Assembly (NCBI GenBank): GCA_028718865.1
Contig: JAQUKX010000003.1
Location: 33,214-97,213, forward strand
Reading direction: 5' to 3'
Origin: Patescibacteria group bacterium
GTDB lineage: Bacteria > Patescibacteriota > Patescibacteriia > UBA1558 > GWA2-36-10
DNA: 64,000 bases
Shown here: positions 25,803 through 44,993 of the stretch, piece by piece
Numbering within the stretch: the stretch's first letter is position 1
How the letters are laid out: every line of letters starts with the position of its first letter
Program-made: the position numbers and the translations under genes
The notes under the pieces: model-generated
Seen by the model: the letters and a program-made list of their open reading frames with translations, nothing else
Database searches by the model: none
Told to the model about the DNA's origin: nothing

Positions 25803-25838
25803 AAGTTTTCGACAAAAAAGTCCCGTTTTTACTCGGGA

Positions 25839-27299: not shown

Positions 27300-27545
27300 A
27301 TGCAAGTAGTCGTGATTTCTGTCTATCAGTCGTGCGTATGCGACGTCCCGAAACGAGCTTTGCGGTAAAATAGTGCGGAGCACATCGCAAAGGCGAGTAG
27401 AGGGATGTAGGCTAAAGCTCACACATACTAAAAGAATAAAATTAAAAGTGCCTAAGCTAATTTAAGCACTTTTAACTATAAATTTCAAATGTAGTATAGG
27501 TGTAAGCTAAGCCGCATACGCGGTGTTGTGCGCTGTAATAAAGTC
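27300..27545. repeat. Compact complete cassette site (L half plus central hairpin plus R half).
   Basis: CGTGCGTATGCGACGTCCCGAAACGAGC ... GAGTAGAGGGATGTAGGC ... AAAAGTGCCTAAGCTAATTTAAGCACTTTT ... GCCGCATACGCGGTGTTGTGCGCTG. Confidence 0.65.
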
Positions 27546-27546
27546 C

Positions 27547-27831
27547 TTATTTCTTTTGGTTCAGAAATTCTTTATATAGTTCTTGAATTCTAGTCGCTTT
27601 TTCAGCAGCCTCAAGTATTTCTTGTTGTCTACCCTCTTTTAATGTATTGGCAATATTTTCAGGTCTTAGAGAATCATTCATATAATCATTAAGATATCGT
27701 CCCACTATATCACTACCAGCTTCTAATGCCTGGTGTAATTTTTCTGAATCAGGAAATTCAGCTTTTACTCTTTCAATGAAATCTTGCGGGTAGCCAGACT
27801 CGCCCTCTGTTTTTGGTTTTTCCATGTTCAT
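27547..27831 (-). CDS. Hypothetical protein (cassette ORF).
   Basis: 94 aa, acidic, no motif. Confidence 0.45.
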   Translation of the reverse strand: MNMEKPKTEGESGYPQDFIERVKAEFPDSEKLHQALEAGSDIVGRYLNDYMNDSLRPENIANTLKEGRQQEILEAAEKATRIQELYKEFLNQKK

Positions 27832-27904
27832 AATTTTTTTCGTTAATTATTAATTCAATATGTATAATATATTATTATATTTTAAATGTAAATAGGACTT
27901 TATT

Positions 27905-28005
27905 ATGGCGTATAACAGACAAGCGTATCTGAAGTCCCGAATGAGCGGGGCGGTATAATTTCAGCGAAGCTGACCGCCCAAGTGAATGAGGGATTTGGGC
28001 GGAGC
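27905..28005. repeat. L-type cassette half-site.
   Basis: GGCGTATAACAGACAAGCGTATCTGAAGTCCCGAATGAGCGGGGCGGTATAATTTCAGCGAAGCTGACCGCCCAAGTGAATGAGGGATTTGGGCGGAGCTAG. Confidence 0.65.
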
Positions 28006-28020
28006 TAGTAAAATAAATAT

Positions 28021-28440
28021 TTAATTTTCTATTACACTGGTATATTTAAAATCCTTATAATTCAAACTCGTTTTACCTAATAGATCTTTTCTCATATTTA
28101 ATACTATTTCACCTATTACTTTTTGTCCATCTTCTGGATTAGGAGCCTTACCTTCCTCAGAGATGAGTAGTTGGACTAAACGATTAAGTGATTTTACTAC
28201 TTCATCTGAACAGTAGAGCCATGAGCTATATTGTTCTTCAAAGAATTTCTTTTTTAAATTTCCAGAAGTTGTATTACCAACAAAACCTTGTAAATATATA
28301 AGTAGCTTGGCATATTTTTCTTCTTTAAATTTAAGCATAGCTTCGGTCTTTTTTGATTTTATTCCGAAATAATATGTAAGCCAAGCGCCTAATCCGCCAG
28401 AAGCTAGAGAAGTTATTATTGTTAGAATGATATTATCCAT
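28021..28440 (-). CDS. Hypothetical membrane-anchored protein, located between an R and an L half-site.
   Basis: 139 aa with an N-terminal TM. Confidence 0.45.
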   Translation of the reverse strand: MDNIILTIITSLASGGLGAWLTYYFGIKSKKTEAMLKFKEEKYAKLLIYLQGFVGNTTSGNLKKKFFEEQYSSWLYCSDEVVKSLNRLVQLLISEEGKAPNPEDGQKVIGEIVLNMRKDLLGKTSLNYKDFKYTSVIEN

Positions 28441-28454
28441 AGTAGAAAATTAAA

Positions 28455-28500
28455 TATTTATTTTACGTCTAGCGGAGCCAGATACGCGGTGTTGTGTGCT
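28455..28500. repeat. R-type cassette half-site.
   Basis: GTCTAGCGGAGCCAGATACGCGGTGTTGTGTGCTG. Confidence 0.6.
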
Positions 28501-28504
28501 GTTG

Positions 28505-29023
28505 CTAATTTGCCTCTAATATTTCTTTTGCTTTTTTTAAAAAAGTTAGGTCTCTTTTTTGGATAAAAGAACCCTCATAATTATCAGGTTTATCATTTTC
28601 TAAAGTCTTTATAGCGTCTTCTAAACTAAACCAAACAAGTTTAAAGCCCTCTGCTATTTCGCCTTTATCAAAACTAGGTAAATTATTTTTGTTAGTTATG
28701 TTACCTAAATAACAGTAAGAAGTTTGTTTTAGATTATCATGCCAGTTAAAATTAATAGCAGATCGATATTCAATAATTTGTCCAATTTCTTTTTCTACCT
28801 CTATTTCACAGCCAGTTTCTTCTAAAAGTTCCCTTCTTAAACCTTGCATTTTATCTTCGCCCTCTTCAATCCCACCACCAGGTATTTTATGATAATTATG
28901 TTTGGATACGAAAAGCAGAGGAGTGAGTCCTTGATTATCAAAAACTATAGCTCTAGTAGCTTCTCTTATTTTAAAATTATCAGAAGGGAAATTTTCGTCT
29001 CTTAATTCTTTTAATGTTTCCAT
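28505..29023 (-). CDS. NUDIX hydrolase (cassette ORF).
   Basis: 172 aa; Nudix box GGGIEEGEDKMQGLRRELLEETGCEI. Confidence 0.8.
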   Translation of the reverse strand: METLKELRDENFPSDNFKIREATRAIVFDNQGLTPLLFVSKHNYHKIPGGGIEEGEDKMQGLRRELLEETGCEIEVEKEIGQIIEYRSAINFNWHDNLKQTSYCYLGNITNKNNLPSFDKGEIAEGFKLVWFSLEDAIKTLENDKPDNYEGSFIQKRDLTFLKKAKEILEAN

Positions 29024-29069
29024 ATTGGGGGGTTCTTTTATTAGGTATATTTAATGAGTAGCAAATTAG

Positions 29070-29290
29070 CAATGGCATACAACAGACCAGCGTATGCGAC
29101 GTCCCGAAACGAGCGGGGCGCTATACTTACGGCGGAGCCGAGCGCCCAAGCGAGTAAGGGATGTAGGCGTAAGCTTACACTTCTATAGGTTAAAATTAAA
29201 AGTGCCTAAGCTAATTTAAGCACTTTTAACTATAAATTTCAAATGTAGTATAGGTGTAAGCTAAGCTGCATACGCGGTGTTGTGTGATGT
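29070..29290. repeat. Compact complete cassette site.
   Basis: CATACAACAGACCAGCGTATGCGACGTCCCGAAACGAGCGGGGCGCTATACTTACGGCGGAGCCGAGCGCCC...GAGTAAGGGATGTAGGCGTAAGCTTACAC...AAAAGTGCCTAAGCTAATTTAAGCACTTTT...GCTGCATACGCGGTGTTGTGTGATG. The ends form a ~22-bp imperfect inverted repeat with extrahelical bases. Confidence 0.7.
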
Positions 29291-29430
29291 CGTGTTTTCC
29301 CTTATTTTAAGGGGATTTTAATTATTGACAAAATAACTAAAATATGCTATTATTATATGTTATGTGGCGCCGATGCCGTAACCCCCGCCTCAGGGATTGA
29401 GGTATATACTTCTCAGGAGGTTACTACACC

Positions 29431-29853
29431 ATGAAGCGCATGACCTACGTTCTTTCGATCGTGATCCTGCTGATCTCGTCCATGGCCTTCGCGGCCAGCC
29501 ACCCCATCGTCAACAAGGACGACACCGCCAAGGTTCCGAGCTGGGACTGGGTCGACGTCCTGAACCAGGAAGTCGTCTACAGCGGCAACAACGAGTTCAC
29601 CTACGGCGAGACCTGCGGCATCGAGTGCGGCGGCACCGTGACCGTCATCGGCGAGGTCGACGAGGGCAACGTCCTGGTACGCTACACCAGTCCCCATGGC
29701 CAGACCTACGGTACGCCTTGTCCCTCCGGCATCATCTTCCAGCTCTCCAAGGAGCGCTTCACGCTGATGACGGCGGAGTACCTGGCCAACATGAAGGCCG
29801 AGCAGGAGCACCGGCAGAAGATCGCCAACATCATCAAGGAAGCCGAAGGCTAG
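29431..29853 (+). CDS. GC-rich (~62%) secreted protein; inverted self-contained unit.
   Basis: Signal peptide MKRMTYVLSIVILLISSMAFAAS. Upstream TTGACA at 29327 and SD CTCAGGAGGTTACTACACC-ATG. Terminator TGAGCAAGTCATAAAACTGCTCACTCTTTTTTT. The overlapping track ORFs 29397..29873 and 29413..29877 are GC artefacts. Confidence 0.65.
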   Translation: MKRMTYVLSIVILLISSMAFAASHPIVNKDDTAKVPSWDWVDVLNQEVVYSGNNEFTYGETCGIECGGTVTVIGEVDEGNVLVRYTSPHGQTYGTPCPSGIIFQLSKERFTLMTAEYLANMKAEQEHRQKIANIIKEAEG

Positions 29854-30126
29854 GCCATCGGCGCCAGACCTGAGCAAGTCATAAAACTGCTCACTCTTTT
29901 TTTACTCAAAAATAAAATAACCTCGTAAGAGATTATTTATATAGAAAGGGGAAACACGATTTCACATAACATCGGGATTAAGGGAAGTTGCGACCGCAGG
30001 GAGCAATTTGGGAAAATGCCGAGCTGAGGCATTTTCCGTTTAAGCCCTGTTATACGCCCCGACGACTGAAAGGAGGAGAGCGCAGCGTGGTTCGACCGAA
30101 GGGAGAAAGTCCGCCGTAGCCCGCCG

Positions 30127-30609
30127 TTAAAGCGCAGAAATTTTGTCTGGAAGATGGTCAATTCCGCCAAATTCTTTAATGGGAATAGATGTTATTTTTT
30201 TCTTAATCTCAGGTTTTACATGAGTGATAGTCATTTCATCTATTCCGCCGATAGATTCGCAGTCATCTTCAATTAGAACATCCGGAATAATTCTTTCTGC
30301 GACATCTTTGTATTCTTCATTTTTTTGGCGGAATAGTAATTGACCATCTGGAAACTTAAATTTCTTGAGAACATTTTGTATTTGCTGGATTTCTTCCGGT
30401 TTTCTGCGAGAAGTCAAATACAAAATTTCTGCGCCATCATTTTTCCAATTCTGCAATTTTTTAACCGCATTACCAACAGGAACATATGACTTATAATCAT
30501 GCACAGATTCTTCTTTATTTTCAACTTGTTTGACAATTTCATTGCGAGTATGACCTACTGCATTTTTGTGCATGATTATTGTTCCCTCTGTAAAGATTAG
30601 TATTCTCAT
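30127..30609 (-). CDS. Hypothetical protein (cassette ORF).
   Basis: 160 aa, no confident motif. A degenerate site remnant lies at 29940-30125. Confidence 0.45.
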   Translation of the reverse strand: MRILIFTEGTIIMHKNAVGHTRNEIVKQVENKEESVHDYKSYVPVGNAVKKLQNWKNDGAEILYLTSRRKPEEIQQIQNVLKKFKFPDGQLLFRQKNEEYKDVAERIIPDVLIEDDCESIGGIDEMTITHVKPEIKKKITSIPIKEFGGIDHLPDKISAL

Positions 30610-30649
30610 ATTATTAGTTAAAAAATTGCTTTATATAAAAGTATCGAGG

Positions 30650-30885
30650 CGGGCGGAGGCGGATTGCGTATAACAGACAAGCGTATGCGACGTCCCGAAA
30701 CGAGCCTTGCGGTAAAATAGTGCGGAAGCACACCGCAAAGGCGAGTAAGGGATGTAGGCGTAAGCTTACACCTATTATATAGGTAAAATTAAAAGTGCCT
30801 AAGCTAATTTAAGCACTTTTAACTATAAATTTCAAATGTAGTATGGGTGTAAGCTAAGCCGCATACGCGGTGATAGATGATGTAC
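30650..30885. repeat. Compact complete cassette site.
   Basis: Same architecture as 29070-29290, including the AAAAGTGCCTAAGCTAATTTAAGCACTTTT hairpin and ending GCCGCATACGCGGTGATAGATGATG. Confidence 0.65.
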
Positions 30886-30967
30886 ATTTTTCCTTAATTT
30901 TTGTATTTTTAAAAGTAGAATTTGATTTTTATAAAAAATTAGAGGCCCAGTTAAGAGCCTCTAATTT

Positions 30968-31159
30968 TTAGCGCGTTCTTCTACCAGCTCTGATCTCCTG
31001 ACAGTTTTTACACAGTCTTCTGCCTCCAGTTCCGCGTCTTAATTTATCCCTTTCAATGTTGTTTCCCAGGACACAATCTGAATAGATGTGATATACCTCC
31101 TGATCAACTGAATGATAGGGCATAGATGGTCTAGCCATTTTGGTTAAACCTTTCACCAT
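30968..31159 (-). CDS. Small basic Cys-containing protein (possible regulator).
   Basis: 63 aa, CxxC-like spacing (SDCVLGN...CKNC). A perfect palindrome CCATCCTGATCTAGAATTCCAGTTTTCTAAATCAGGATGG overlaps its start. Confidence 0.35.
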   Translation of the reverse strand: MVKGLTKMARPSMPYHSVDQEVYHIYSDCVLGNNIERDKLRRGTGGRRLCKNCQEIRAGRRTR

Positions 31160-31456
31160 CCTGATCTAGAATTCCAGTTTTCTAAATCAGGATGGCGTTT
31201 ATCCTAGTTGTTAACAACTAAGCTGGACATTTGACCTATTATCATTTAGAATGACAATAGGGTACTAGCATCTGGAAATGCTAGGTCCAATAAATTATAT
31301 CTCCAAAAAGGTTCCAATATCTGGAGCCTTTTTGGCTATTTTCAGTCTAACATGCTAGAAATTTTTTGTCAAATTTTGCGATTAACAAAAAGTTATTATT
31401 CATTTGTTATTCACTAGATATTGACAAATTTGAAACATATGCTATACTTATGACAT

Positions 31457-31849
31457 ATGGATAAAAAAAGTTTAAATTTACAAAAATTTCCTGGTAAAGG
31501 AACTAAGATTAGTAGAAAAATTAGTATTACAAAGTCTAATTCCTTTGGAATACCCCCTACTTTTTATAAAGAAAACGATCTAGACAGTTATGATTATGCT
31601 AATTTGTATTATGACCCAGGTAATAAAATCATAGGACTGGAATTTTCTAACAATAGTGAGCCTGGTTCATTTAAGTTAACTAGGCATGGAACTGGAGATA
31701 AAACTAGTGCTAGTTTTGTCGCCCGTTCGTTTTTTAAGACGTATAATATAGATTCTAAAAAGTATTATGGAAGATATTCTCCAGACGATATTATGCAAGA
31801 TGGAAATAAGATTTTTTTGATAGAAATTAAAGAAAGGGACGATAGTTAA
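31457..31849 (+). CDS. Hypothetical protein with its own TTGACA-N17-TATACT promoter.
   Basis: 130 aa. Promoter at 31426-31455. Divergent from 30968-31159, with palindromes (TAGTTGTTAACAACTA) in between. Confidence 0.45.
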   Translation: MDKKSLNLQKFPGKGTKISRKISITKSNSFGIPPTFYKENDLDSYDYANLYYDPGNKIIGLEFSNNSEPGSFKLTRHGTGDKTSASFVARSFFKTYNIDSKKYYGRYSPDDIMQDGNKIFLIEIKERDDS

Positions 31850-31969
31850 TCTAAATTTGTGACAAAAAATTTCGTCAAATGACGGAGTTTTTTATTTGTT
31901 AAAATAAATAAAAATCAAATTCTTGTGATTACCAAAAAAGCTGGTTAAAAACCAGCAAAGGAAAAATGT

Positions 31970-32085
31970 ATTTCATCTATCAGACAAGCGTATGCGAAGT
32001 CGTGATTGAGCGAATATGATAAAATTATTTGAAATCATATTCGCGAAAGAACGATTTGGGTGAGCGGACGTTAAGAATAAAATAT
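31970..32085. repeat. L-type cassette half-site.
   Basis: TCATCTATCAGACAAGCGTATGCGAAGTCGTGATTGAGCG-[hairpin]-CGAAAGAACGATTTGGGTGAGCGGACG. Confidence 0.6.
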
Positions 32086-32661
32086 TTATTTTATGATTTG
32101 TTCTATTAATTCAGGAAATTTTTCAGTACCCATATCACCAATAACATAATGTCCATGATTTTTTAGGTCTACAATTTCCCCACCTAATGCTTCATGAAAA
32201 ATTTTTAAACTTTCTTTTCCTTCTGGCTCTTCATTATCAGAGGTAAACATTACTACTTTATTTATGCTATCCTTAATTGATTTATCTATATCATAAGTAT
32301 AAAACTTTTTTCTACCTTCATCATTTCCATCTGGTATTTTCCATGGAGCTACTAAAATTAGTTTAAAAATTTTCTTCTTTGTTTCTCCAAGCCAACGAAC
32401 TAAAAAAGCACAACCACAGCTATGCCCTATTAGGATAGTGTTTTCATCAACTGTATATTTTTCAAATTCCTCTTTAAATTTTTCATAATTTGGGCTCCAA
32501 GGTTCTGGCATTAGGGGAGTCTCTGTTGGAATATTGTTTTGAGAGAGTTGTTTTTTTGTCCATGGTATCCAATGTTTATCATGGGTTCTTTTCTCTGGAT
32601 CCATAGCCTTTTCAATATTAGAGGGACATCCATGGATTATAATACATTTTAAATTTGTCAT
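32086..32661 (-). CDS. YdeN/RBBP9-like alpha/beta serine hydrolase (cassette ORF).
   Basis: 191 aa with the GHSCG nucleophile-elbow motif. Confidence 0.6.
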   Translation of the reverse strand: MTNLKCIIIHGCPSNIEKAMDPEKRTHDKHWIPWTKKQLSQNNIPTETPLMPEPWSPNYEKFKEEFEKYTVDENTILIGHSCGCAFLVRWLGETKKKIFKLILVAPWKIPDGNDEGRKKFYTYDIDKSIKDSINKVVMFTSDNEEPEGKESLKIFHEALGGEIVDLKNHGHYVIGDMGTEKFPELIEQIIK

Positions 32662-32669
32662 AAAATAAA

Positions 32670-32715
32670 TATTTTATTTAGTCCGCGAACCGCATGCGCG
32701 GTGTTGTGTGATGTT
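32670..32715. repeat. R-type cassette half-site.
   Basis: GTCCGCGAACCGCATGCGCGGTGTTGTGTGATG. Confidence 0.6.
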
Positions 32716-32732
32716 TAAATCGGCCAGAATAT

Positions 32733-33473
32733 TTAACTGAGATTTGCAAGTCTATAGCCTCCATCAATAGTAAGAACTTCGGCACAGACGGCGTCATTTT
32801 TTATTAGAAATACTATTGCATCCGCAATTTCTTCTGGTTGTATCATTCTTTTGATTAAATGCACTGAACCAAGTTTTTTTTGTTCTGCTGCCGTTGGATT
32901 ATCCCACATAGACGTAGCAACTCGTCCAGGAGCTATGGCATTAACTAAAATTTGTGGTGCCAATTTTTTCGCTAAATTCTTAGTGTAATTTTCTAAAGCT
33001 GCTTTAAAAGCAGCGTAGGCAATCGCTGTTGGTCTTCCATATCCAAGCCGGCCATGAATAGAGGATATATTAATAATTTTTCCTTGCCGCATAATATTAA
33101 GAGCGTATTTTGTTACCATAAAAGCTCCAAGCAAATTATTTCTAAATATATTTTCAAATACTTGAATGTTAGTATGATTATCATTTTCATCAAAAATTCC
33201 AGCATTATTTACTAATATATGAAGTGAGGAAAAATTTTTTTTGATTTGTGTAATCATTTTTTTAATATCATCCTCATTTGTAATATCAGCTTTAATAGCA
33301 ATATTGTGTTTTGAATAAATATTGCATTTAGCTAATACTTTATCAGCAGATTTTTTATCTGTTTTATAGTTAATAATCACCGAACAACCTTCTTTAGCTA
33401 AAGCGATTGCCGTAGCGGCACCCATACCTTTTGATGCTCCTGTGATTAGAGCTACTTTATTTTGTGTTTTCAT
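32733..33473 (-). CDS. Short-chain dehydrogenase/reductase (cassette ORF).
   Basis: 246 aa; TGASKGMGAATA (TGxxxGxG) and YAAFKAAL (YxxxK) motifs. Confidence 0.8.
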   Translation of the reverse strand: MKTQNKVALITGASKGMGAATAIALAKEGCSVIINYKTDKKSADKVLAKCNIYSKHNIAIKADITNEDDIKKMITQIKKNFSSLHILVNNAGIFDENDNHTNIQVFENIFRNNLLGAFMVTKYALNIMRQGKIINISSIHGRLGYGRPTAIAYAAFKAALENYTKNLAKKLAPQILVNAIAPGRVATSMWDNPTAAEQKKLGSVHLIKRMIQPEEIADAIVFLIKNDAVCAEVLTIDGGYRLANLS

Positions 33474-33489
33474 AAGATTATTGTAAGGC

Positions 33490-33600
33490 CGATTTAAATT
33501 TCACATAACAGACAAGCGTATGCGACGTCCCGAAACGAGCTTTGCGGTATAATTGTGCGGAGCACACCGCAAAGGCGAGTAAGGGATGTAGGTGAAGACA
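33490..33600. repeat. L-type cassette half-site.
   Basis: TTTCACATAACAGACAAGCGTATGCGACGTCCCGAAACGAGCTTTGCGGTATAATTGTGCGGAGCACACCGCAAAGGCGAGTAAGGGATGTAGG. Confidence 0.6.
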
Positions 33601-33612
33601 AAAACAGAAAAG

Positions 33613-34206
33613 CTAATCTAATTTCTTAATAGCATTTTCATACCACGGCCGAGCAATTTGTTTAGCTTTTTCAGATGTTATTCTATTAAACATCCAGTCA
33701 AATTTACCTCTTATTTTTTCTTTACCATCTTGCTTTACTAAGACAGTTAAAAAATGATCAATTTGATTTTCAAGAAAGCTTAGACTATCGGCATCTTTAA
33801 TTAGATTTTGTTCATCATTTCCACCTTCTTCATGTCTAGAAACAAGCATTTTCACTTTAGCTATTATTTGGTCATCAGCATTTTGTTTCTTTAAAAACTC
33901 TGCTATTACCTCCGCACCCCTTTCTTCATGAGGTCGCAAAATTTCAGTAGCAGTATAGCTAAGCTTTTCTATATTTTCCATTACATCATTTTGTCTGAAA
34001 GCTCTTTCTATATCATGAGCGACTGCGGCTATTTGCATAGCTTCATCAGCCTGAGGATCTAATTCTTTTAGCCAATAGACTGTTCTTAAAAAATGCTTAA
34101 TCCCTTGGGGCTTATTGGCTTTGTTGAAAGAATCAATAACAAATTGCTCGGCTTTTTTGTATAATTTATTATCCATAATATTTAACTGTTTTTGTCTGAA
34201 CCGCAT
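33613..34206 (-). CDS. HD-domain phosphohydrolase (cassette ORF).
   Basis: 197 aa with the HD motif AVAHDIER. The likely true start is MDNKLYKK at ~34176; the upstream ATG lies inside the R-site. Confidence 0.6.
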   Translation of the reverse strand: MRFRQKQLNIMDNKLYKKAEQFVIDSFNKANKPQGIKHFLRTVYWLKELDPQADEAMQIAAVAHDIERAFRQNDVMENIEKLSYTATEILRPHEERGAEVIAEFLKKQNADDQIIAKVKMLVSRHEEGGNDEQNLIKDADSLSFLENQIDHFLTVLVKQDGKEKIRGKFDWMFNRITSEKAKQIARPWYENAIKKLD

Positions 34207-34230
34207 ACGCGGTGTTAGGCGATGAATGTG
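34185..34230. repeat. R-type cassette half-site carrying a canonical GTTAGGC core.
   Basis: CTGAACCGCATACGCGGTGTTAGGCGATG. Confidence 0.6.
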
Positions 34231-34868: not shown

Positions 34869-34995
34869 ATTTTTCGCCTAACAGCGCGGGTAGCTGAAGT
34901 TCCGCCCTGTTCGATTATTCTATTATTATAGCGCGAAGTGGGGGCGAAGCACTAGATAGTGCAGCAAGAATGGGCGGAATTTGGGCGGAGCCTAT
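34868..34995. repeat. L-type cassette half-site carrying a canonical GCCTAAC inverse core.
   Basis: CGCCTAACAGCGCGGGTAGCTGAAGTTCCGCCC...GAATGGGCGGAATTTGGGCGGAGC. Confidence 0.6.
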
Positions 34996-35007
34996 ACATA
35001 TTTAACA

Positions 35008-35481
35008 CTAATAAGTGCAACAACATCTAGGGCAGGTACAATTTTCAGGTGGCAAGGGTTGTTTTTGTATCGCTTCATCGATATTATATTCCTTTCCATC
35101 AAGTTTTTTACAAGCATCACAGCAATCATCTGTACAAGTAATAATAACTATTGAACACCCACTTTTTTTATATTCAAGTAAATCATAATAAAGTCTTTTT
35201 TGAGTGGTCTTGTTTGATTTTTTACCCTCTGACTCAAGTATTCTTTCCATTTGATAATAAAGAGCTCTAATATTTCTAGTATTACCTGATTGCATATTTT
35301 TTAAAATATATTCATTACATATAGACCATATTGTGTCATTTAAATTTACACTTTTTTGTCGGCGAGCAAAAACAACCTGTTCCGTGATTCCGCAGGTGTC
35401 GCCGACTGCAGATAGGAACTTGTTAACGGGTGTTTTTTCACCACGTACCCATTCTATCTTTTGCTTGTTTTTGAAAAACAT
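35008..35481 (-). CDS. Hypothetical Cys-rich protein (cassette ORF).
   Basis: 157 aa; CTDDCCDACKK ... CTCPRCCCTY cluster. Confidence 0.45.
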   Translation of the reverse strand: MFFKNKQKIEWVRGEKTPVNKFLSAVGDTCGITEQVVFARRQKSVNLNDTIWSICNEYILKNMQSGNTRNIRALYYQMERILESEGKKSNKTTQKRLYYDLLEYKKSGCSIVIITCTDDCCDACKKLDGKEYNIDEAIQKQPLPPENCTCPRCCCTY

Positions 35482-35484
35482 TTA

Positions 35485-35540
35485 AGTGTTAAATATGTAT
35501 TGGCGTAGCCAGGTACCCGCTGTTGTGCGATGTTCTCTTT
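35485..35540. repeat. R-type cassette half-site.
   Basis: GGCGTAGCCAGGTACCCGCTGTTGTGCGATG. Confidence 0.55.
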
Positions 35541-35582
35541 TGTGAAAAAAATCTAATATAATTTTGGCACTTTTTATCCGTT

Positions 35583-36383: not shown

Positions 36384-36449
36384 AGTTTTACTTATTATAA
36401 TTAATAATAAAAAGTGCCAAAATTATCCTTTATCTTTATTTTTTCACAA

Positions 36450-36660
36450 AAGATAATTTCGCACAACAGTCGTGCATACGCGAAGTCGCGAGTGAAAGTG
36501 GCGGTGGTAAAATTACGAGCGAAGCGAGGAGACCACCGACACGAAACGAGCGATTTGCGCGAGCTTAATATCTACTTTTTAAATTGCAGAAAAATATTCT
36601 TTTACTTGAAACATTTTTGATACTACTGGCTTGCCGCGTATGCTGTGTTAGCTGATGTAG
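36450..36660. repeat. Compact complete cassette site.
   Basis: TCGCACAACAGTCGTGCATACGCGAAGTCGCGAGTGAAAG...CGAAACGAGCGATTTGCGCGAGC...TTGCCGCGTATGCTGTGTTAGCTGATG. Confidence 0.6.
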
Positions 36661-36680
36661 CGAAAAGCAGACTATGTTTC

Positions 36681-37736: not shown

Positions 37737-37764
37737 ACAATTTTATTTAGTTGCTTTTCGCTAT

Positions 37765-37870
37765 TTCAGCTAACAGGCCAGCGTATGCGAAGTCGTGATT
37801 GAGCCTATGTGGTAGAATTCGCGAAGCGACCACGTAGGCGAAAGAACGATTTGGGTGAGCGAGCTAAGAC
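37765..37870. repeat. L-type cassette half-site.
   Basis: CAGCTAACAGGCCAGCGTATGCGAAGTCGTGATTGAGCC...CGAAAGAACGATTTGGGTGAGCGAGC. Confidence 0.6.
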
Positions 37871-38151
37871 CAACGATTATTTTTATATTCTCTAACTCTT
37901 TTAATAAATTCTTGTATATCATCTTTATGAATTAGTAATTCATGGTACTCGCTAGGATCCCCTTGAAAACGTAAATCGTCACCTAGACTTGGGTATCCTT
38001 CAATTTTTCCATTCACATAACGACTAGCGTATTGTGATTGTTGTCGCAGTAGATCAAGAGCAATATCGCCAAAATGTACATATCCATTTTCATCAACATC
38101 AAATAGTTTACCCTCAATTTCTATTTGATCTTTAGGTTGTTCAAATTTCAT
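37864..38151 (-). CDS. Hypothetical small protein (cassette ORF).
   Basis: 95 aa. Confidence 0.45.
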   Translation of the reverse strand: MKFEQPKDQIEIEGKLFDVDENGYVHFGDIALDLLRQQSQYASRYVNGKIEGYPSLGDDLRFQGDPSEYHELLIHKDDIQEFIKRVREYKNNRWS

Positions 38152-38159
38152 ATTTTTTA

Positions 38160-38210
38160 TTGTTAGCTCGCGAACCGCATACGCGGTGTTGTGCGCTGTC
38201 AGATGTATTG
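38160..38210. repeat. R-type cassette half-site.
   Basis: GCTCGCGAACCGCATACGCGGTGTTGTGCGCTG; itself a ~33-bp imperfect palindrome. Confidence 0.6.
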
Positions 38211-38227
38211 AATTTTAAAAATTTGCA

Positions 38228-38331
38228 GCTCTTGACATATTATTAGATATATTATATTATAATATATCGGCTTTAATGGCCGAAACCCAGCTACGAGGCG
38301 GTCGTAGCAGTTCTTTCAAAGGAGTTGTCAC
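38228..38331 (+). promoter_or_regulatory. Consensus promoter and SD for the GC-rich ORF 38332-38859.
   Basis: CTTGACATATTATTAGATATATTATATTATAATAT (TTGACA ... TATAAT) and CAAAGGAGTTGTCAC-ATG. Confidence 0.5.
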
Positions 38332-38859
38332 ATGACGGCCAAGAATGCTGTCGCCGACGATGTCCTCGGACGGATCACTCGTAAGCTTCTGGACTTGTTG
38401 CGTCGAATCCTTGAGGGTTCGGTGGAAACCACTCGGGCCTCATTCTTCATCCAGCGTGCAATCGAGAATCCGCCGACCCCCAAGACCCCCGGTCCGGGAG
38501 AAGCGGGCATCTACGTACTCGAGAGCTACTGGTGCTACGACAAGGCGAACTACGATTTCGCTACGATCAGCTTGGAGTGGGGTGGTGAGCCTACTTGGTT
38601 TTTCGAAGATCTTCTCAAGGAAGACATCTCGGAGGACGCTAGGGGCTTTTTGCTGCGCACGCTTCGGCGGATTTACGAAGCGCAGATCCCAGATCATGGT
38701 CGGCGGAGGATGATGCGGCTCTATCGCGTCTCTTACCGCAATTGTCTGGGAAATTTCGAGGGTTCTCTGGGTCGTCCACTTCGTGACCTTCATTTCTCGC
38801 TTGAGCCTGTTTGTGAGTTCGACGAACAAGGCGAACCCCTTCCCGTCGGAACACTGTAG
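38332..38859 (+). CDS. GC-rich (~58%) hypothetical protein; inverted self-contained unit.
   Basis: 175 aa, no signal peptide. The overlapping ORFs 38345..38713, 38440..38871, 38639..39028 and 38328..38510 are GC artefacts. Confidence 0.55.
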   Translation: MTAKNAVADDVLGRITRKLLDLLRRILEGSVETTRASFFIQRAIENPPTPKTPGPGEAGIYVLESYWCYDKANYDFATISLEWGGEPTWFFEDLLKEDISEDARGFLLRTLRRIYEAQIPDHGRRRMMRLYRVSYRNCLGNFEGSLGRPLRDLHFSLEPVCEFDEQGEPLPVGTL

Positions 38860-38939
38860 TCTCAAGTACAAGGCAACATGATATCGTTCCCGCCGAGTAG
38901 CGTAAGCAAAAGGCGGGTTTTTTATTTGTATAAAATTTT

Positions 38940-39180
38940 AGATTAAGAAAATACATCTGATTGCGTACAACAGTCAGGCGTATGCGATGTCCCGAACGAG
39001 CTTTGCGGTAAAATAGTGCGGAGCACACCGCAAAGGCGAGTGAGGGATGTAGGCTAAAGCTTACACCTATTATATAGTAAAATTAAAAGTGCCTAAGCTA
39101 ATTTAAGCACTTTTATTCTTTCTTTACAAGCAAACTCTAGTGTGAGCTTAGCCGCATACGCGGTGTTGTGTGAAGTACAT
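38940..39180. repeat. Compact complete cassette site.
   Basis: TGCGTACAACAGTCAGGCGTATGCGATGTCCCGAACGAGC...GAGTGAGGGATGTAGGC...AAAAGTGCCTAAGCTAATTTAAGCACTTTT...GCCGCATACGCGGTGTTGTGTGAAG. Confidence 0.65.
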
Positions 39181-39248
39181 GTTTTCCTTAGAAATTGTTT
39201 TATCAAATTTACTAGAAAATCCGATTTTGTTTTTAAAGATAGGTTATT

Positions 39249-40502
39249 TTATGCCCCAAAAGCAAATATTTGTTGTTGTGAATATGTGGGTTCTTCTATT
39301 TCTTCTTCAATCTCACCATTTAACATTTTTATTAAGTTGGTACCTATGTGATAGCCAAGATTTACTGGCACGGCATTGCCAATTTGTTTATATTGTTGAG
39401 AAACTGAGCCAGAAAATTTCCAATTGTCTGGGAATGTTTGTATTCTTGCATATTCTCTCACAGTGAGAGGCCTTGTTTCTTCTGGGTGACATCTCTCTGT
39501 TTGTTTTTGTGCGGGGCTACAAGTTAAAGTCAATGAAGGTTCATCCCAAGATAGTCTTCTTGCCATTCCAGTTTTGCCACCGCCCATATAAAAACTTGCC
39601 CCCATGTATTCTTTCTGTAAGTTTTCCGGTAAATCTCTCCAATATCCACCTGGTGGTATAAGTTTTAGAATTTTTTTCTTTTTTTCAGGGTACTCTTGTC
39701 CTTCAGATTTTGGACATTTATCAAAAGCTTCTCGTAGTGAAATTATATAGTCTTTTTCTTTTGGGAATACTATCGGAATATTTAGATCATTTCTAACGCC
39801 TATAATAATTAGACGCTCTCTTTTTTGCGGAACATCTAAATATTGGGAACGGAGGACTTTGTATTTTACCTTATAACCAATTTCTTCTAAAACAGAAATC
39901 ATAGTTTTTAAAGTTCTTCCATTATCATGAGTTAGTAAGCCCCGCACATTTTCACCAATAGCTATTTTTGGCTGTACTTCTTTTACACATCTGGCAAATT
40001 CAAAAAACAATGTTCCTCTGATATCTTCAAAACCCATTTTTCTTCCAGCGTATGAAAAAGTTTGACAAGGAAAGCCGCCCTGGACAATATCAGCTTGTCC
40101 TTTTGTAAATTTTAAATTACGAATGTCATCTTCAATTACATTCCAATGAGGTTTGTTTATTCTTAAAGTTTGGCAGGCGTGTTTATCATATTCATTTAAT
40201 AGAACGTGTTGAATGCCCGCATTTTCCATTCCTAATGCAGTGCCCCCAGCTCCAGCAAATAACTCAATAGCGGTGTAAGGGGATGATTCTTTATTTTTTA
40301 AAATTTTAAATTTATTGCTTTTGGTTCCTTGTGTTTTATTTTGTACCCGTTTGATTTCTTCTAAGCTAAAAATGCGGGCATTTTTGTCATCCCTAAAAGA
40401 TTTTACAAGGCCTCTTTTGTCCCAACGCCTTATTGTATCGACTGAAATGTTTAGTAGATTTGCTGTTTGACCAGCAGTAAAATGTTTTTGTTTATTTTTC
40501 AT
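39249..40502 (-). CDS. DNA (cytosine-5)-methyltransferase with an N-terminal MerR-like HTH.
   Basis: 417 aa; N-terminal QTANLLNISVDTIRRWDKRGLV; MTase motifs LFAGAGG (I), GFPCQTFSYAGR (IV), ENVRGL (VI), QIGNAVPV (X). Confidence 0.85.
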   Translation of the reverse strand: MKNKQKHFTAGQTANLLNISVDTIRRWDKRGLVKSFRDDKNARIFSLEEIKRVQNKTQGTKSNKFKILKNKESSPYTAIELFAGAGGTALGMENAGIQHVLLNEYDKHACQTLRINKPHWNVIEDDIRNLKFTKGQADIVQGGFPCQTFSYAGRKMGFEDIRGTLFFEFARCVKEVQPKIAIGENVRGLLTHDNGRTLKTMISVLEEIGYKVKYKVLRSQYLDVPQKRERLIIIGVRNDLNIPIVFPKEKDYIISLREAFDKCPKSEGQEYPEKKKKILKLIPPGGYWRDLPENLQKEYMGASFYMGGGKTGMARRLSWDEPSLTLTCSPAQKQTERCHPEETRPLTVREYARIQTFPDNWKFSGSVSQQYKQIGNAVPVNLGYHIGTNLIKMLNGEIEEEIEEPTYSQQQIFAFGA

Positions 40503-40567
40503 ATAAAAAATGATAGAGGATATCTATCATTAGTATATCATAATAACCACTGCCTATGCAAAGGTTA

Positions 40568-41275
40568 TTATGTGGAAAAAGCCATTTGGAATAATTTAAA
40601 GTATTCCCTCATTTCTTTTTGGCTAAGATTATATTTATGTTTGTCCATTATAACCTTTGGCAATACTTCAAATAATTCTTGTAGAGCCTTTTCTCTTCCG
40701 GTTGCCAGCGCATAAAAACTAACGCCATCTATAACTCTTATTTTATTGTTGGAAGGGCGGCGTTTTCCATTCTTTTTATTATCTGAAGGCACGAAGGGCT
40801 TGTCATATTTTTTCTTTCCTTGTGGTATGATCTCTACAAAGTAACCAGTATAACCACTATATCTTTCCATTTTTAATTTTGATTTTATTGAATCATAAAT
40901 CTCAACTTTATGGTTGCCTTTTGTAGTATTAAATTTATTTTTTACTTCCGCAATAATTTTCATTTTTTCATTTATGACGTCTAAGCCGCCCCCTTTACCT
41001 AAATTTTGCCAGTCATTAACAGAACCTAAAATATCTTGGTGAAAATCACCAATAGCATTTTGCATTGTTTTTTGAATTTGTCTAGCTTTTTCTAATTCCA
41101 GCCAGTCTTTACAAGATATTGAGTGAGTTACACCATGAAACAAGGCCGAAAAAGGGTCTATTACATTTTTATACAATTTTTTTTCTGCGTCATTTTCTGC
41201 AGCATCTATTACTGTAATAACTTTTTTTACTGCAGCGCATAGATCTTTGTCTGATATAAATTTTAGATAAGGCAT
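40568..41275 (-). CDS. Candidate type II restriction endonuclease, partner of the C5-MTase.
   Basis: 235 aa directly downstream of the MTase in the same cassette. Possible PD-(D/E)xK arrangement GLDVINEKMKIIAEVK. Assignment is by context only. Confidence 0.4.
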   Translation of the reverse strand: MPYLKFISDKDLCAAVKKVITVIDAAENDAEKKLYKNVIDPFSALFHGVTHSISCKDWLELEKARQIQKTMQNAIGDFHQDILGSVNDWQNLGKGGGLDVINEKMKIIAEVKNKFNTTKGNHKVEIYDSIKSKLKMERYSGYTGYFVEIIPQGKKKYDKPFVPSDNKKNGKRRPSNNKIRVIDGVSFYALATGREKALQELFEVLPKVIMDKHKYNLSQKEMREYFKLFQMAFST

Positions 41276-41389
41276 GGGTATTTAAAAAATTATTTACTAA
41301 AGATATTATAGCTTAATTACTATATTAAATAAACAATTAAAAAAAATCGGATTTTTAATATTTCAAGCTTAATGATTTACTTAGGAAAA

Positions 41390-41510
41390 CATGTATTTCA
41401 TACAACAGACAAGCGTATGCGAAGTCACGAAGTGAGTGAAGGGGCTATAATTTCGGCAGAGCCGAGCCCCGAAATGAACGAGTGATTTGGGTGAGCGAGT
41501 TAAATATTAT
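41390..41510. repeat. L-type cassette half-site.
   Basis: TCATACAACAGACAAGCGTATGCGAAGTCACGAAGTGAGTGAAGG...GAACGAGTGATTTGGGTGAGCGAG. Confidence 0.6.
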
Positions 41511-41761
41511 TGTTGTTTTATTTTAGTTTTCCCTAATTTACTTAATAGCTCCGCAATAAATCCGGATAATATTCCCACAATAGCTCCTTTTAGGAGTATT
41601 AACCAATTAAAATTATTACCTTGGAATTTTAATGCCAAAGAAATGATAGCTCCAATAATAATGCCCAATGTCAGTCCGCCCCACACTGCATTTTTTGATT
41701 TCCAATACATTAATAATAATATGATTGCTATTACGCCTAATATTATCCAAATTGTGTTCAT
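41507..41761 (-). CDS. Small membrane protein (2-3 TM).
   Basis: 84 aa; MNTIWIILGVIAIILLLMYW... The antisense ORF 41487..41783 is spurious. Confidence 0.45.
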   Translation of the reverse strand: MNTIWIILGVIAIILLLMYWKSKNAVWGGLTLGIIIGAIISLALKFQGNNFNWLILLKGAIVGILSGFIAELLSKLGKTKIKQQ

Positions 41762-41777
41762 GTTTTTATTTAAATTT

Positions 41778-41822
41778 ATTTAACTCGCGAACCGCATACG
41801 CGGTGTTGTGTGATGTTTGAAC
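41778..41822. repeat. R-type cassette half-site.
   Basis: ACTCGCGAACCGCATACGCGGTGTTGTGTGATG. Confidence 0.6.
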
Positions 41823-41828
41823 CCTTTT

Positions 41829-42680
41829 TTATATTTTTTTAATATGATTATTTTCTAATACATATTCAGATTCGAAATTGAAGACATTTTTAGGAAGTGG
41901 ATTTTTAGCAAAGGGATTATGGACTAATACTACCCGTTTACCCAATTTTTCATTTACAAGATTGATTAAATGATCAGTGCAGTAGATTATTGCTGAGATT
42001 TCTTTATGACTATTATTGCAAAAATAGGTTGTGTCAATTTCAATACCATTTTTCTTTTTTATTTTAGGGCGCAGTGAGTAGCCAGATTCTTTTGTTTTTA
42101 AATTTATTTGTTGATGCCCAACTGCAAAAACGGCACTGAGGATAAGAGGAAATCCAGGGTCAATATGTTGTGTTTCATATCTATTTATAGCAATAATAAA
42201 TGGTTCATTATCTTTTACTTGTTGGTTTAAATATTTATTGATAAAAATATTATATTTTATATCTATCGCATTAGTTATTCTAATGATCATTTGTTCTTCT
42301 GGTAAATCTTGACACTGGATTTCTGACAGATCTTCAGCTACATACATTTCGTCTACAGCGTCATTTCCTCTTGATGCAGTAGTTGTTTCACACCAAGCTA
42401 TTGAGTCTTCAATTTCGAATTTAATATCAGGGCCAGAGTTTGATTTAGAATATATTTTTATTTTTTGATCAAGAAATATACATGCAAGATACATTTCCCA
42501 TAATCTTTGATGAAATTGATTTCTGGTTTCAATTAAAAAATTATCATCAGCATAGGGGTAATATTTTTTCCAAAGATTTTCAATAAAAATACGAAAATAT
42601 TCTCTTTCCTTTTCATCTCGGTTGAAGATATAATTTTTATCTTGTGCTGATTTATTGTTAAAAAAGGGTTCAAATTTCAT
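41829..42680 (-). CDS. Hypothetical protein, 283 aa (cassette ORF).
   Basis: Its start codon is the CAT of the L-site CATACAACAG; on the minus strand this reads GTTGTATGAAATTTGAA, i.e. the start overlaps the GTTRRRY-like core. Confidence 0.5.
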   Translation of the reverse strand: MKFEPFFNNKSAQDKNYIFNRDEKEREYFRIFIENLWKKYYPYADDNFLIETRNQFHQRLWEMYLACIFLDQKIKIYSKSNSGPDIKFEIEDSIAWCETTTASRGNDAVDEMYVAEDLSEIQCQDLPEEQMIIRITNAIDIKYNIFINKYLNQQVKDNEPFIIAINRYETQHIDPGFPLILSAVFAVGHQQINLKTKESGYSLRPKIKKKNGIEIDTTYFCNNSHKEISAIIYCTDHLINLVNEKLGKRVVLVHNPFAKNPLPKNVFNFESEYVLENNHIKKI

Positions 42681-42822
42681 ACAACAGACAAGCGTATGAG
42701 AAGTTGACCGTGGAGTAGCTATGATAAAATTATATCATCATAGCTACGAACGGGCAATTTGCGAAAACCAGCCTTTTTTGGCTGTTTTTCCTCATACGCG
42801 GTGTTGTGTGATGTCGAATTTT
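42678..42822. repeat. Compact complete cassette site (shortest, ~145 bp).
   Basis: CATACAACAGACAAGCGTATGAGAAGTTGACCG-[hairpin ATGATAAAATTATATCATCAT]-...CCTCATACGCGGTGTTGTGTGATG. Confidence 0.65.
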
Positions 42823-42864
42823 CTTAATATAAAGGCCATTATTTAGGGGAATTTTTATTATTTT

Positions 42865-42966
42865 TAAGATTGACAGAATGTAGTATTTATGATATAATAC
42901 ACTATTCGCCAAAAATAGACTAATTCTGGCTATTGGCGTGTACACCACAGTCAGGAGGTAAGAAAG
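42865..42966 (+). promoter_or_regulatory. Consensus promoter and SD for 42967-43266.
   Basis: GATTGACAGAATGTAGTATTTATGATATAATAC (TTGACA-N17-TATAAT) and AGTCAGGAGGTAAGAAAG-ATG. Confidence 0.55.
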
Positions 42967-43266
42967 ATGTACGGACCTCTTTTTCAAATCAGTGACGAGC
43001 TCGTTTGGAAGGACGAGCCTGCCCCAGGGCACGAAGAGGCTGGCCCCTTCAAGGTGGCCACTGTCGAGAACAACAACGACCCTGATGCTTGCGTATGCGG
43101 TGCATCCCGCAAGAACGGTTACATTCACTACGACGACGTCGAAGAAGGTGACTGCTGCGGTGAACTGCCGGCACAGTGGGTGACGATCACCTGCAACGGG
43201 ATCATCGTCAAGAACCGTGATGGCTCTGACGCCGTCTTCTGCTCTGACTGGTTCCGCAAGGCCTGA
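42967..43266 (+). CDS. Small GC-rich (~58%) Cys-rich protein; the cassette nearest the recombinase, inverted.
   Basis: 99 aa with 7 Cys (CVCG...CCGE...C...C). A palindrome CCCGGGTTAGAATAGGGTCTC follows the stop. The ORF 42992..43183 is spurious. Confidence 0.55.
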   Translation: MYGPLFQISDELVWKDEPAPGHEEAGPFKVATVENNNDPDACVCGASRKNGYIHYDDVEEGDCCGELPAQWVTITCNGIIVKNRDGSDAVFCSDWFRKA

Positions 43267-43377
43267 ACGGCCAGCCCTCTACGAGACCCGGGTTAGAATA
43301 GGGTCTCATTTTTTTACTTCAAAAAATTCCCAAACTAAAAAATAATCTCTAAAAGATTATTTATCTAATGAATAGAA

Positions 43378-43466
43378 AATTCGATTTCATACAACAGCTT
43401 GTTTGTGCACCTATTGACAGTTTAGCCAATATCAGCCAACATGTAAATAGATATCATTAATCACAA
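43378..43466. promoter_or_regulatory. Terminal L-type site plus candidate attI / recombinase promoter region.
   Basis: TTCATACAACAGCTTGTTTGTGCACCTATTGACAG... immediately upstream of the recombinase gene. It is the last site of the array. Confidence 0.4.
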
Positions 43467-44982: not shown

Positions 44983-44993
44983 GTATTTATAAA

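Follow-up and report, generated by a model that had tools for sequence, protein, structure and literature searches.

Architecture of the locus

We analyzed a 64-kb stretch of the genome of a tiny, uncultivated member of the Patescibacteria (the window; coordinates are window positions) in which a single tyrosine recombinase gene adjoins an array of short, recurring arms, termed L and R, that delimit gene modules. Arms were located by a fuzzy-consensus search together with nhmmer profiles built from its hits, and four weak sites were recognized by eye. This annotation yielded 17 L and 17 R arms between 19,599 and 42,814, which alternate strictly, without exception, and share one orientation with none inverted. 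The L/R alternation put forward in an earlier reading of this DNA (the original prediction) thus holds under systematic annotation, while the array start, placed there at 27,300, moves down to 19,599, giving 17 sites. The array terminates in a lone L-like arm at 43,391, here called attI, followed by the recombinase gene (43,467–44,366). Over the remaining 40 kb, the arm search returned nothing comparable, its sole match bearing eight mismatches and lying within the 16S rRNA gene. The G+C content of the window is ~35%.

The layout is that of an integron: the recombinase gene is adjacent and divergent to attI and to a co-oriented array of mostly minus-strand genes. The same succession of recombinase, attI and array recurs in L002, L004, L007, L008, L017, L025, L028 and L084 (labels of this type denote comparison loci). 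On the plus strand, the R-arm consensus reads CC-GCATACGC-GGT-GTTGTGTGATGT, that is, GCATACGC-GGT-GTTGTGT, with a spacer of 3 nt in every case. The L-arm consensus, (C)ATACAAC-AGACAA-GCGTATGCG-AAGTC, reads GCATACGC-TTGTCT-GTTGTAT on the opposite strand and is the inverted complement of the R arm with a spacer of 6 instead of 3 nt. The AAC/GTT triplet of the boxes is conserved (ACACAAC, GTTGTAT). Resemblance to the integron motif RYYYAAC/GTTRRRY, proposed earlier for the R half, is confined to this triplet and its surroundings. Likewise, the ATG of GTTGTATG or GTTATG does start the open reading frames (ORFs) at 41829-42680 and 19202-19600, but the proposed coincidence of core and start codon is incidental rather than general: among 98 L arms with scores of 12 or more, a core ATG opens an ORF at only two, 41829-42680 being one of them.

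Each L arm and the R arm that follows it form one site. Eight of the 17 sites are compact, with arms 64–189 nt apart start to start; the other nine enclose cargo at spacings of 390–2,766 nt, namely a single minus-strand ORF in seven cases, a plus-strand ORF in one and a complete diversity-generating retroelement (DGR, 2.8 kb) in another. All six compact pairs listed in the original prediction exist (spacings 189, 187, 189, 171, 185 and 109 nt), and every one of its six enclosed ORFs lies between an L arm and the R arm following it. Its six enclosing sites become nine with the addition of a Fic gene (L19599/R20754), the plus-strand ORF and the DGR (L24434/R27200). The sites are listed below from the recombinase outward, with arm starts in brackets; P3 denotes the stem around the enclosed cargo.

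43467..44366, plus strand: tyrosine recombinase (array integrase), 299 aa (297 aa from the second ATG, 43473), XerA-like/IntI-like
43380..43425: attI-like site, lone L-type arm TTTCATACAAC-AG-CTTGTTTGTGCACC (L43391) with neither an R partner nor a side hairpin
42681..42814 (L42681/R42790): site 1, compact; L-box variant TATGAG pairs with CTCATA; 92% identical to L007:2661-2799
41402..41816 (L41402/R41792): site 2, gene-enclosing; ORF 41507-41761 (minus strand, 84 aa); P3 GCGAGTTAAATA and its complement
38967..39176 (L38967/R39152): site 3, compact; side hairpin and minus-strand terminator hairpin
37770..38199 (L37770/R38175): site 4, gene-enclosing; ORF 37864-38151 (minus strand, 95 aa); P3 GCGAGCTAA / TTAGCTCGC
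36463..36658 (L36463/R36634): site 5, compact; both L-boxes changed together, GCATACGCG / CGCGTATGC; 85% identical to L008:118-319
34878..35533 (L34878/R35509): site 6, gene-enclosing; ORF 35008-35481 (minus strand, 157 aa); L-box variant GCGGGTAGCTG / CAGGTACCCGC
33505..34225 (L33505/R34201): site 7, gene-enclosing; ORF 33613-34206 (minus strand, 197 aa, HD/DUF4202)
31977..32714 (L31977/R32690): site 8, gene-enclosing; ORF 32086-32661 (minus strand, 191 aa, serine hydrolase); P3 stem of 21 nt
30670..30883 (L30670/R30859): site 9, compact; R-box GATAGATG of R30859 pairs with CATCTATC of L31977 across the next cassette slot
29079..29290 (L29079/R29266): site 10, compact; Y fold of R-box/L-box stem, side hairpin and terminator-hairpin branch
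27912..28502 (L27912/R28478): site 11, gene-enclosing; ORF 28021-28440 (minus strand, 139 aa); L-box variant GCGTATCTG / CAGATACGC
27323..27536 (L27323/R27512): site 12, compact
24434..27224 (L24434/R27200): site 13, DGR-enclosing; arms GGATATCTG / CAGATATCC and a stem of 24-31 nt (24513-24543 / 27177-27207)
23240..23328 (L23240/R23304): site 14, minimal compact (~89 nt); L-box GCGATTATCTG / CAGATAATCGC; side hairpin reduced to a GAA-triloop hairpin
22114..22715 (L22114/R22691): site 15, gene-enclosing; plus-strand ORF 22328-22618 with its own promoter; L-box GGATATGAGA / TCTCATATCC; P3 of 20 nt
21165..21303 (L21165/R21279): site 16, compact
19599..20778 (L19599/R20754): site 17, far end of the array, gene-enclosing; Fic/DOC gene 19631-20569 (minus strand, 312 aa)

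Intervals from an L arm to the next R arm are referred to here as inner slots and those from an R arm to the next L arm as outer, or classical, slots. Both hold ordinary genes with Pfam matches and of similar size and orientation, on the minus strand in 64 of 74 inner and 63 of 80 outer cases. Serine hydrolase, HD/DUF4202 and Fic genes occur in inner slots; NUDIX, SDR, GNAT and EamA transporter genes and a restriction–modification pair occupy outer ones. The interiors of compact sites contain a minus-strand terminator hairpin. The restriction–modification slot and the DGR of site 13 comprise the following features.

39177..41401, minus strand: outer slot, bracketed by a 31-nt inverted repeat that extends the R-box (39164-39194 / 41377-41407)
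39249-40502: C5 methylase fused to a MerR-type helix-turn-helix, type II system
40568-41275: Eco47II-like endonuclease of the same system
24717-25400, plus strand: DGR target gene, with variable repeat (VR) at 25272-25388
25686-25802: template repeat (TR)
25666-26085: ORF
26157-27158: reverse transcriptase, RVT_1 domain, group-II-like

In the DGR, all 16 TR/VR mismatches fall at TR adenines, the VR lies at the 3' end of the target gene and the reverse transcriptase gene is adjacent. A group II intron inside an attC site, a candidate raised by the reverse transcriptase at 26157-27158, was rejected on the basis of this adenine-specific pattern, which identifies a DGR.

L and R arms around enclosed genes are pairing partners

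Pairing between arms was assessed in a sample comprising the window, 34 loci retrieved via integrase homologues and 48 metagenome contigs retrieved with an R-arm pattern. Together these provided 111 adjacent L-to-R pairs, from ~60 independent contigs, and 93 R-to-L pairs. Across inner slots, the L-box of the L arm and that of the following R arm were complementary at 8.70 of 9 positions, compared with 7.36 (s.d. 0.09) after shuffling. The excess was retained in the 74 pairs more than 300 nt apart (8.59 of 9 versus 7.43 shuffled) and was absent across R-to-L intervals (7.29 versus 7.29). The distal 7 nt of the R-box paired across outer slots (6.75 of 7 versus 5.61 shuffled), with no excess across inner slots (5.61 versus 5.62). 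Because this complementarity is partner-specific, the L and R arms flanking a gene represent two halves of one folded site, and the arms around an enclosed gene are true base-pairing partners.

The pairing extends beyond the boxes. Around enclosed genes, the longest perfect complement forming P3 has a median length of 13 nt and a maximum of 24, compared with a median of 7 for non-partners; at site 11, a 27-nt stem (28008-28034 / 28440-28466) directly abuts the enclosed ORF. On the other side, an outer stem prolongs the R-box by ~20–22 bp, with positions 8–17 in Watson–Crick pairs in 80–90% of cases versus 20–40% after shuffling, and includes a conserved T.T mismatch and G.T pairs. Within the window, compensatory L-box variants were found at, for example, sites 5, 6, 11 and 13. 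In the minimum-energy fold of the 431-nt strand of site 2, the arms pair and the ORF is looped out (z −3.6 for the plus and −2.95 for the minus strand), and compact site 10 folds as DNA with −41.9 kcal/mol (z −5.35).

Like attC sites, the arms thus form an imperfect inverted repeat R''-L''...L'-R' with an AAC/GTT triplet, in which structure rather than sequence is kept. They depart from attC in size, being 331–2,766 nt apart at 9 of the 17 window sites and 74 of the 111 sample sites. In place of single extrahelical bases they have an internal loop of 6 nt versus 3 nt and conserved T.T and G.T positions, and the plus strand is favored only at such conserved positions. G.T pairs of the plus strand were conserved in 75 of 81 cases at outer-stem position 6 and in 25 of 28 in P1, the basal stem of the side hairpin described below.

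Cassette fusion by loss of an attC site is known in classical integrons, and outer slots have the appearance of textbook cassettes. Enclosed genes would be accounted for in these terms by an ordinary integron whose sites have decayed, with two-gene or fused cassettes flanked by arms that match by chance. We find this hardly credible given the matched variants carried by the 74 long pairs. Moreover, the extra stem abuts the gene on both sides, and enclosed intervals are completely filled by arm, side hairpin, stem, ORF, stem and arm, leaving no room for lost sites. The gene-enclosing form also makes up two-thirds of all sites across the ~60 contigs, and L-to-R blocks recur intact in different contexts. 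For example, the block of site 7 is 75% identical to L062:303-1038 over its full extent, with different flanks, and the Fic/DOC gene of site 17 also lies between L and R arms at L004:453-1508, L040:1377-2511 and L066:1684-2725, the stretch from gene to R arm differing among the four loci.

A conserved side hairpin follows the L arms

In the sites, each L arm is directly followed by a side hairpin (SE) of 60–75 nt, as in this example.

29100..29166, plus strand: side hairpin with P1 (AAGTCCC/GGGATKT), tandem G.A pairs, P2 and a GNA-triloop mini-hairpin

P1 contains covarying pairs (C-G/T-A, G-C/C-G/A-T), a conserved G.T and tandem G.A, while P2 occurs with 36 different arm sequences; RNAalifold recovered 17 pairs, 12 of them with compensatory changes. 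The last pair of P2 includes the T of a TAnAAT hexamer present in 90–96 of 103 elements, the remainder of the hexamer being unpaired, and TGn precedes the hexamer in 60 elements. Past the hexamer, a GNA-triloop mini-hairpin was found 39 times on the plus strand, compared with three equivalents on the minus strand. The side hairpin is retained in relatives whose integrases are only ~40% identical (L017, L025 and L028). Its GNA triloops and conserved G.T pairs favor a function as plus-strand DNA, and its hexamer, which points antisense to the genes of the cassettes, resembles an extended −10 element displayed as at the fork junction in open promoter complexes.

Two conventional assignments were rejected. 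A two-hexamer scan for ordinary sigma-70 promoters flagged none of the side hairpins because they lack a −35 element. A ribozyme (hammerhead- or twister-like) or riboswitch, suggested by GTCCCGAAACGAGC...GAGTAAGGGA, was dismissed since core motifs are absent and neither side hairpin nor site matched any Rfam 15 family, including DUF1874, at gathering thresholds, with only noise up to E 10.

The recombinase lacks the IntI-specific domain

The recombinase consists of SAM-like and catalytic domains (Pfam Phage_integrase, 4.5e-40) with the catalytic motifs GLRVSE, HSLRHSFATH and GH...Y. It scores 234.9 against NCBIfam NF040815 (XerA/'integron integrase'; cut-off 220), remains below the cut-off of TIGR02249 (205.6 versus 265), where it matches in two pieces, and reaches 142 versus 435 for PRK15417. 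Alignment to Vibrio cholerae VchIntIA (2a3v) places query residues 192-223 opposite IntI residues 170-242, 31 versus 72 residues, so that ~40 aa are missing; this break coincides exactly with the IntI-specific domain (intI_Cterm/I2 helix, near patch III). Among solved structures, the best full-length match is Pyrococcus abyssi XerA (4a8e), and a C-terminal GIRSPL tail aligns with the IntI tail. A recombinase without the IntI-specific domain does not count as an IntI by the criterion of the field (PMC4889954, PMC9668308). The array recombinase is therefore not a canonical IntI, and the label 'intI' used in the original prediction does not apply.

The 120 best homologues listed are mostly 283–310 aa long (a few up to 339), carry generic names only and come almost entirely from metagenome-assembled genomes (MAGs) of Patescibacteria, also known as the candidate phyla radiation (CPR), including Parcubacteria, Nomurabacteria, Komeilibacteria and Saccharibacteria. 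Homologues sit beside arrays of the same architecture in independent Patescibacteria MAGs, one of them on an 847-kb contig, and this arrangement recurs in the 48 metagenome contigs. An exact-protein look-up gave no match for the 299-aa form and, for the 297-aa form, only a 3.9-kb contig identical to the window. As side observations, the integrase gene is closely followed by two tRNA genes (44895-45067), and many MAG contigs (L001, L003, L005, L006, L009, L010, L012, L021, L023 and L027) end 150–340 nt upstream of theirs. The latter suggests that the repeated arms break short-read assemblies; the arrays are probably under-represented in MAGs.

L-arm exchange points lie in the AAC triplet

Comparison among genomes located the points at which arrays have exchanged segments. 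Window positions 24436-27329, covering L24434, the DGR, R27200 and a 100-nt outer segment, are 85% identical to L008:4556-7447. Homology starts on the left at the L-arm AAC and ends on the right at ...CTATCAG, past which the window enters the next site and L008 enters attI (CTTGTTTGTGCACC...), 120 nt from its integrase gene. The 2.9-kb DGR-bearing unit is, therefore, the first cassette at attI in L008. Correspondingly, the junction CAG|CTTGTTTGTGCACCT(R)TTGACA of the window attI recurs beside the L008 integrase, there abutted by another cassette. Two nearly identical contigs, L042 and L073, agree through ...CCTAAC and differ from the next base. These breakpoints confine the L-arm crossover to the AAC triplet, as in integrons, where crossover occurs in the R' triplet; the distal R-box likewise pairs across the outer slot only. 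The L-to-L unit behaves as a cassette that moves between genomes and takes along the DGR enclosed in its site. Checking cassette boundaries against metagenomic variants, as the original prediction had suggested, thus placed the unit edges in L-arm triplets. Its proposal that attC-like sites carry genes in their variable loop gains support from this relocated unit as well as from the partner-specific L-boxes, the compensatory variants and the 10–24-nt stem.

The triplet-precise breakpoints also bear on an explanation without recombination sites, in which the inverted repeats act in RNA or as generic elements, such as terminators or mRNA stabilizers of the repetitive extragenic palindrome (REP) or miniature inverted-repeat transposable element (MITE) type, near a housekeeping Xer gene. 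Minus-strand terminator-like hairpins in compact interiors and the promoter-like hexamer of the side hairpin fit this explanation, as do a recombinase that passes the XerA model and the published view that the Xer-related 'Cand' group represents Xer in candidate phyla (PMC8138268). We nevertheless consider it very unlikely. Homology between genomes breaks exactly at AAC/GTT triplets, a whole unit has relocated to attI, and arrays lie directly upstream of the recombinase in many genomes, with no arms elsewhere in the window. In mRNA (minus strand), the stems would turn the conserved G.T pairs into A.C mismatches, and the GNA triloops are of the DNA type and on the plus strand. IS200/IS605-type or MITE-like ends were rejected on the basis of recombinase type, array context and triplet-precise boundaries.

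A probable integron-like platform with gene-enclosing folded sites

We conclude that the array is probably a chromosomal integron-like cassette platform of a CPR genome with gene-enclosing folded sites. In this model, the single tyrosine recombinase gene faces an attI-like site, and the array of modules upstream would be mostly transcribed away from it. Rather than a contiguous sequence, the site would be a fold produced by pairing of an L arm with the R arm that follows it in the same DNA strand. Read inward from its open end, this fold would comprise an R-box duplex with AAC/GTT, an asymmetric 6x3 internal loop, a 9–10-bp L-box duplex, the conserved side hairpin and finally the P3 stem closing a terminal loop. 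This loop would serve as a second cargo slot, occupied by ~20 nt, a terminator hairpin, a gene or the 2.8-kb DGR. Since the classical slot from R arm to next L arm is bracketed by complementary sequence continuing the R-box, an excised single-stranded cassette would fold as a dumbbell, its central stem containing the crossover point and either or both loops carrying cargo. The neighboring recombinase would catalyze the exchanges on folded single-stranded DNA, most likely of the plus strand; seen from the genes this is the bottom strand, in keeping with integrons. In distant relatives (Uhrbacteria, Kerfeldbacteria and other loci, namely L017, L025 and L028; integrases ~40% identical), arms and side hairpin of the same kind make up compact sites, the arms being 70–135 nt apart and genes occurring in the outer slot only. 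Because their sites are compact, the gene-in-site state looks like an elaboration of a textbook-like ancestor.

Several points weigh against this interpretation. We infer from sequence both what the recombinase does and that its substrate is single-stranded, no recombination having been observed, and the recombinase lacks a domain held necessary for attC recombination in IntI (PMC9668308, PMC4792948). The metagenome sample was drawn with a single R-arm pattern and is, thus, biased toward the window's own clade. A long site folds about equally well as either strand, and the excess of G.T pairs on the plus strand is limited to conserved positions, with 31 G.T versus 25 A.C at variable ones; such counts are informative about the folded strand at conserved positions only. 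Homologous inner modules (75–96% identical) have unrelated neighbors in 9 of 9 cases on the left and 14 of 14 on the right, homologous outer modules behave likewise, and only 100% identical contigs share neighbors. L064 and L080, 99.4% identical, diverge directly after an R arm, indicating recent exchange. Since the modules to the left and right of an arm assort independently of each other, R arms are exchange points, too. Neither this exchange nor the independent assortment is predicted by a purely bottom-strand integron mechanism acting at L arms only. Lastly, the double-stranded L arm alone looks like a canonical Xer-type core with inverted CATAC arms and a 6-bp spacer, making double-strand recombination at L arms possible.

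An Xer-like enzyme of lower strand selectivity may account for R-arm exchange, acting through top-strand or second-strand exchange; as GGTGTTG is invariant, such integrase action is indistinguishable from short-homology recombination. The divergence within the L042/L073 and L064/L080 pairs looks like recent rearrangement of arrays at the population level. These observations favor one part of the original prediction's second proposal, that of independent half-sites, inasmuch as segments on each side of an arm assort independently and R arms exchange.

An alternative explanation would regard each half-site as a complete double-stranded Xer-type site, with modules shuffled by two-strand Xer recombination and without DNA folding. 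Its attractions are an Xer-like recombinase without the IntI insertion, the strictly alternating half-site orientation with two alternating module classes, as in the C/D dif modules of Acinetobacter plasmids (PMC13141974), the independent assortment of both classes with exchange at both arm types, and an L arm, CATACAAC-AGACAA-GCGTATGC, composed of two inverted arms around a 6-bp spacer, with attI built alike. We still regard it as unlikely. The boxes of the R arm are only 3 nt apart, so that L and R arms are not equivalent double-stranded sites. The module-specific complementarity of ends, variable between modules and reaching 10–25 nt beyond the boxes, is unexplained by protein-binding arms, as are the compensatory L-box variants and the conserved G.T/T.T stem positions. 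Expected inversions were not seen, all arms and most genes keeping one orientation.

Building on the integron-like platform, we tentatively consider a more far-reaching reading that we hold to be possible, if doubtful in its entirety: an unrecognized class of CPR integrons in which an Xer-like integrase devoid of the IntI domain acts on Y-shaped sites with arms up to kilobases apart, genes are carried inside the site as well as in the classical slot so that cassettes are dumbbells, both arms exchange so that the two module classes shuffle independently, and the side hairpin recruits RNA polymerase, the whole being a living intermediate between Xer/dif systems and integrons. The side hairpin, with TGnT in duplex followed by single-stranded AnAAT, would mimic a fork junction. 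Once recruited, the polymerase would either provide the primer for the complementary strand of excised single-stranded cassettes or melt the duplex to let distant arms pair. If true, such an intermediate would suggest one way for genes to acquire attC sites, by insertion into the loop of an existing site.

Comparison with known systems

Sedentary chromosomal integrons such as the Vibrio superintegron share with the window a single tyrosine recombinase gene that faces attI and an extended array of accessory genes, co-oriented and for the most part lacking promoters (GNAT, NUDIX, Fic, restriction–modification, SDR). Their sites, too, are built as imperfect inverted repeats in which outer R and inner L boxes flank a spacer that stays unpaired, with AAC/GTT triplets and crossover in the 3'-box triplet; the distal R-box moves together with the cassette that follows, structure prevails over sequence, and sites are homogeneous within a lineage. 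The window differs in its recombinase, which lacks the IntI-specific domain and falls below the TIGR02249 cut-off, and in sites that have a 6x3 internal loop rather than single extrahelical bases, are Y-shaped owing to a covarying side hairpin and continue their stem ~20 bp outside the R-box. Furthermore, the terminal loop of 331–2,766 nt, gene-bearing in two-thirds of sites, contrasts with a variable terminal structure of 20–100 nt (PMC4889954), and inner and outer cargo assort independently.

Acinetobacter pdif modules, recombined by XerC/XerD, have in common with the window an Xer-type recombinase and discrete, shuffled accessory modules of two classes in alternating orientation; independent shuffling of two such classes was found here as well (compared with PMC13141974). 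In contrast, pdif sites are contiguous, double-stranded and 28 bp long, with equal spacers, and are served by the chromosomal XerC/XerD without an adjacent dedicated recombinase. Only the L arms fit the same 6-bp-spacer double-stranded site, the R spacer being 3 nt, and no end-to-end base pairing is known for dif modules, whereas the ends of window-type modules are complementary far past the boxes. The archaeal XerA/'Cand' subgroup resembles the window protein in its ~290–300 aa and in lacking an arm-binding domain and the IntI insertion. However, XerA acts on a single chromosomal dif site in dimer resolution, while the window protein lies beside a 24-kb array of mobile modules.

The DUF1874 motif, a multistem motif in consecutive intergenic regions, was proposed as a possible unusual single-stranded-DNA attC site beyond the simple hairpin (Weinberg et al. 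2017, PMC5737381). It differs in that no adjacent integrase was found at its runs and no genes within the motif were described, and it has no Rfam match in the window. A review of integron distribution does not list the Patescibacteria phylum among hosts (PMC8618304), and our literature search found no description of integrons in CPR/Patescibacteria or of ORFs inside attC sites. A 2026 study reported many 'integron-type' recombinases without detectable attC sites and suggested novel attC sites as one cause (PMC13323075). We regard the array as an integron-like variant absent from the searched literature, with an architecture evident from the arrays themselves, a neighboring recombinase and single-stranded DNA as putative catalyst and substrate, and a presumed integrase contribution to R-arm exchange.

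Integrons are defined operationally by the IntI domain and compact attC hairpins, and detection tools encode both, IntegronFinder searching for compact sites. In the 24-kb, 17-site array, the recombinase fails the first rule, and the second excludes two-thirds of sites of this type on account of their size; standard screens requiring both probably miss such arrays. If the recombinase is the catalyst, integron-like gene capture reaches the CPR, where mechanisms of gene flux are poorly known, and the IntI domain would prove unneeded for cassette systems with hairpin sites. The arrays also offer natural substrates for three questions, those of attC arm distance, strand choice and cassette origin, and they demonstrate a DGR traveling as integron-type cargo.

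Additional features of the window

Five plus-strand ORFs (42870-43266, 29325-29853, 31421-31849, 38232-38859 and 22246-22618) stand out by a G+C content of ~0.49 versus 0.33. Each lies behind a near-consensus TTGACA-17-TATAAT promoter, and a 40-nt repeat is common to three of these promoters. The five antisense ORFs gave no significant Pfam match, with one sub-threshold hit (E 0.002). The minus-strand ORF at 21341-22045 contains three 93-nt tandem units, of which copies 1 and 3 are identical, and shows weak cysteine-rich (TIL-like) matches. Outside the array, the 16S rRNA gene (58026-59602) carries an 83-nt insertion near its 5' end.

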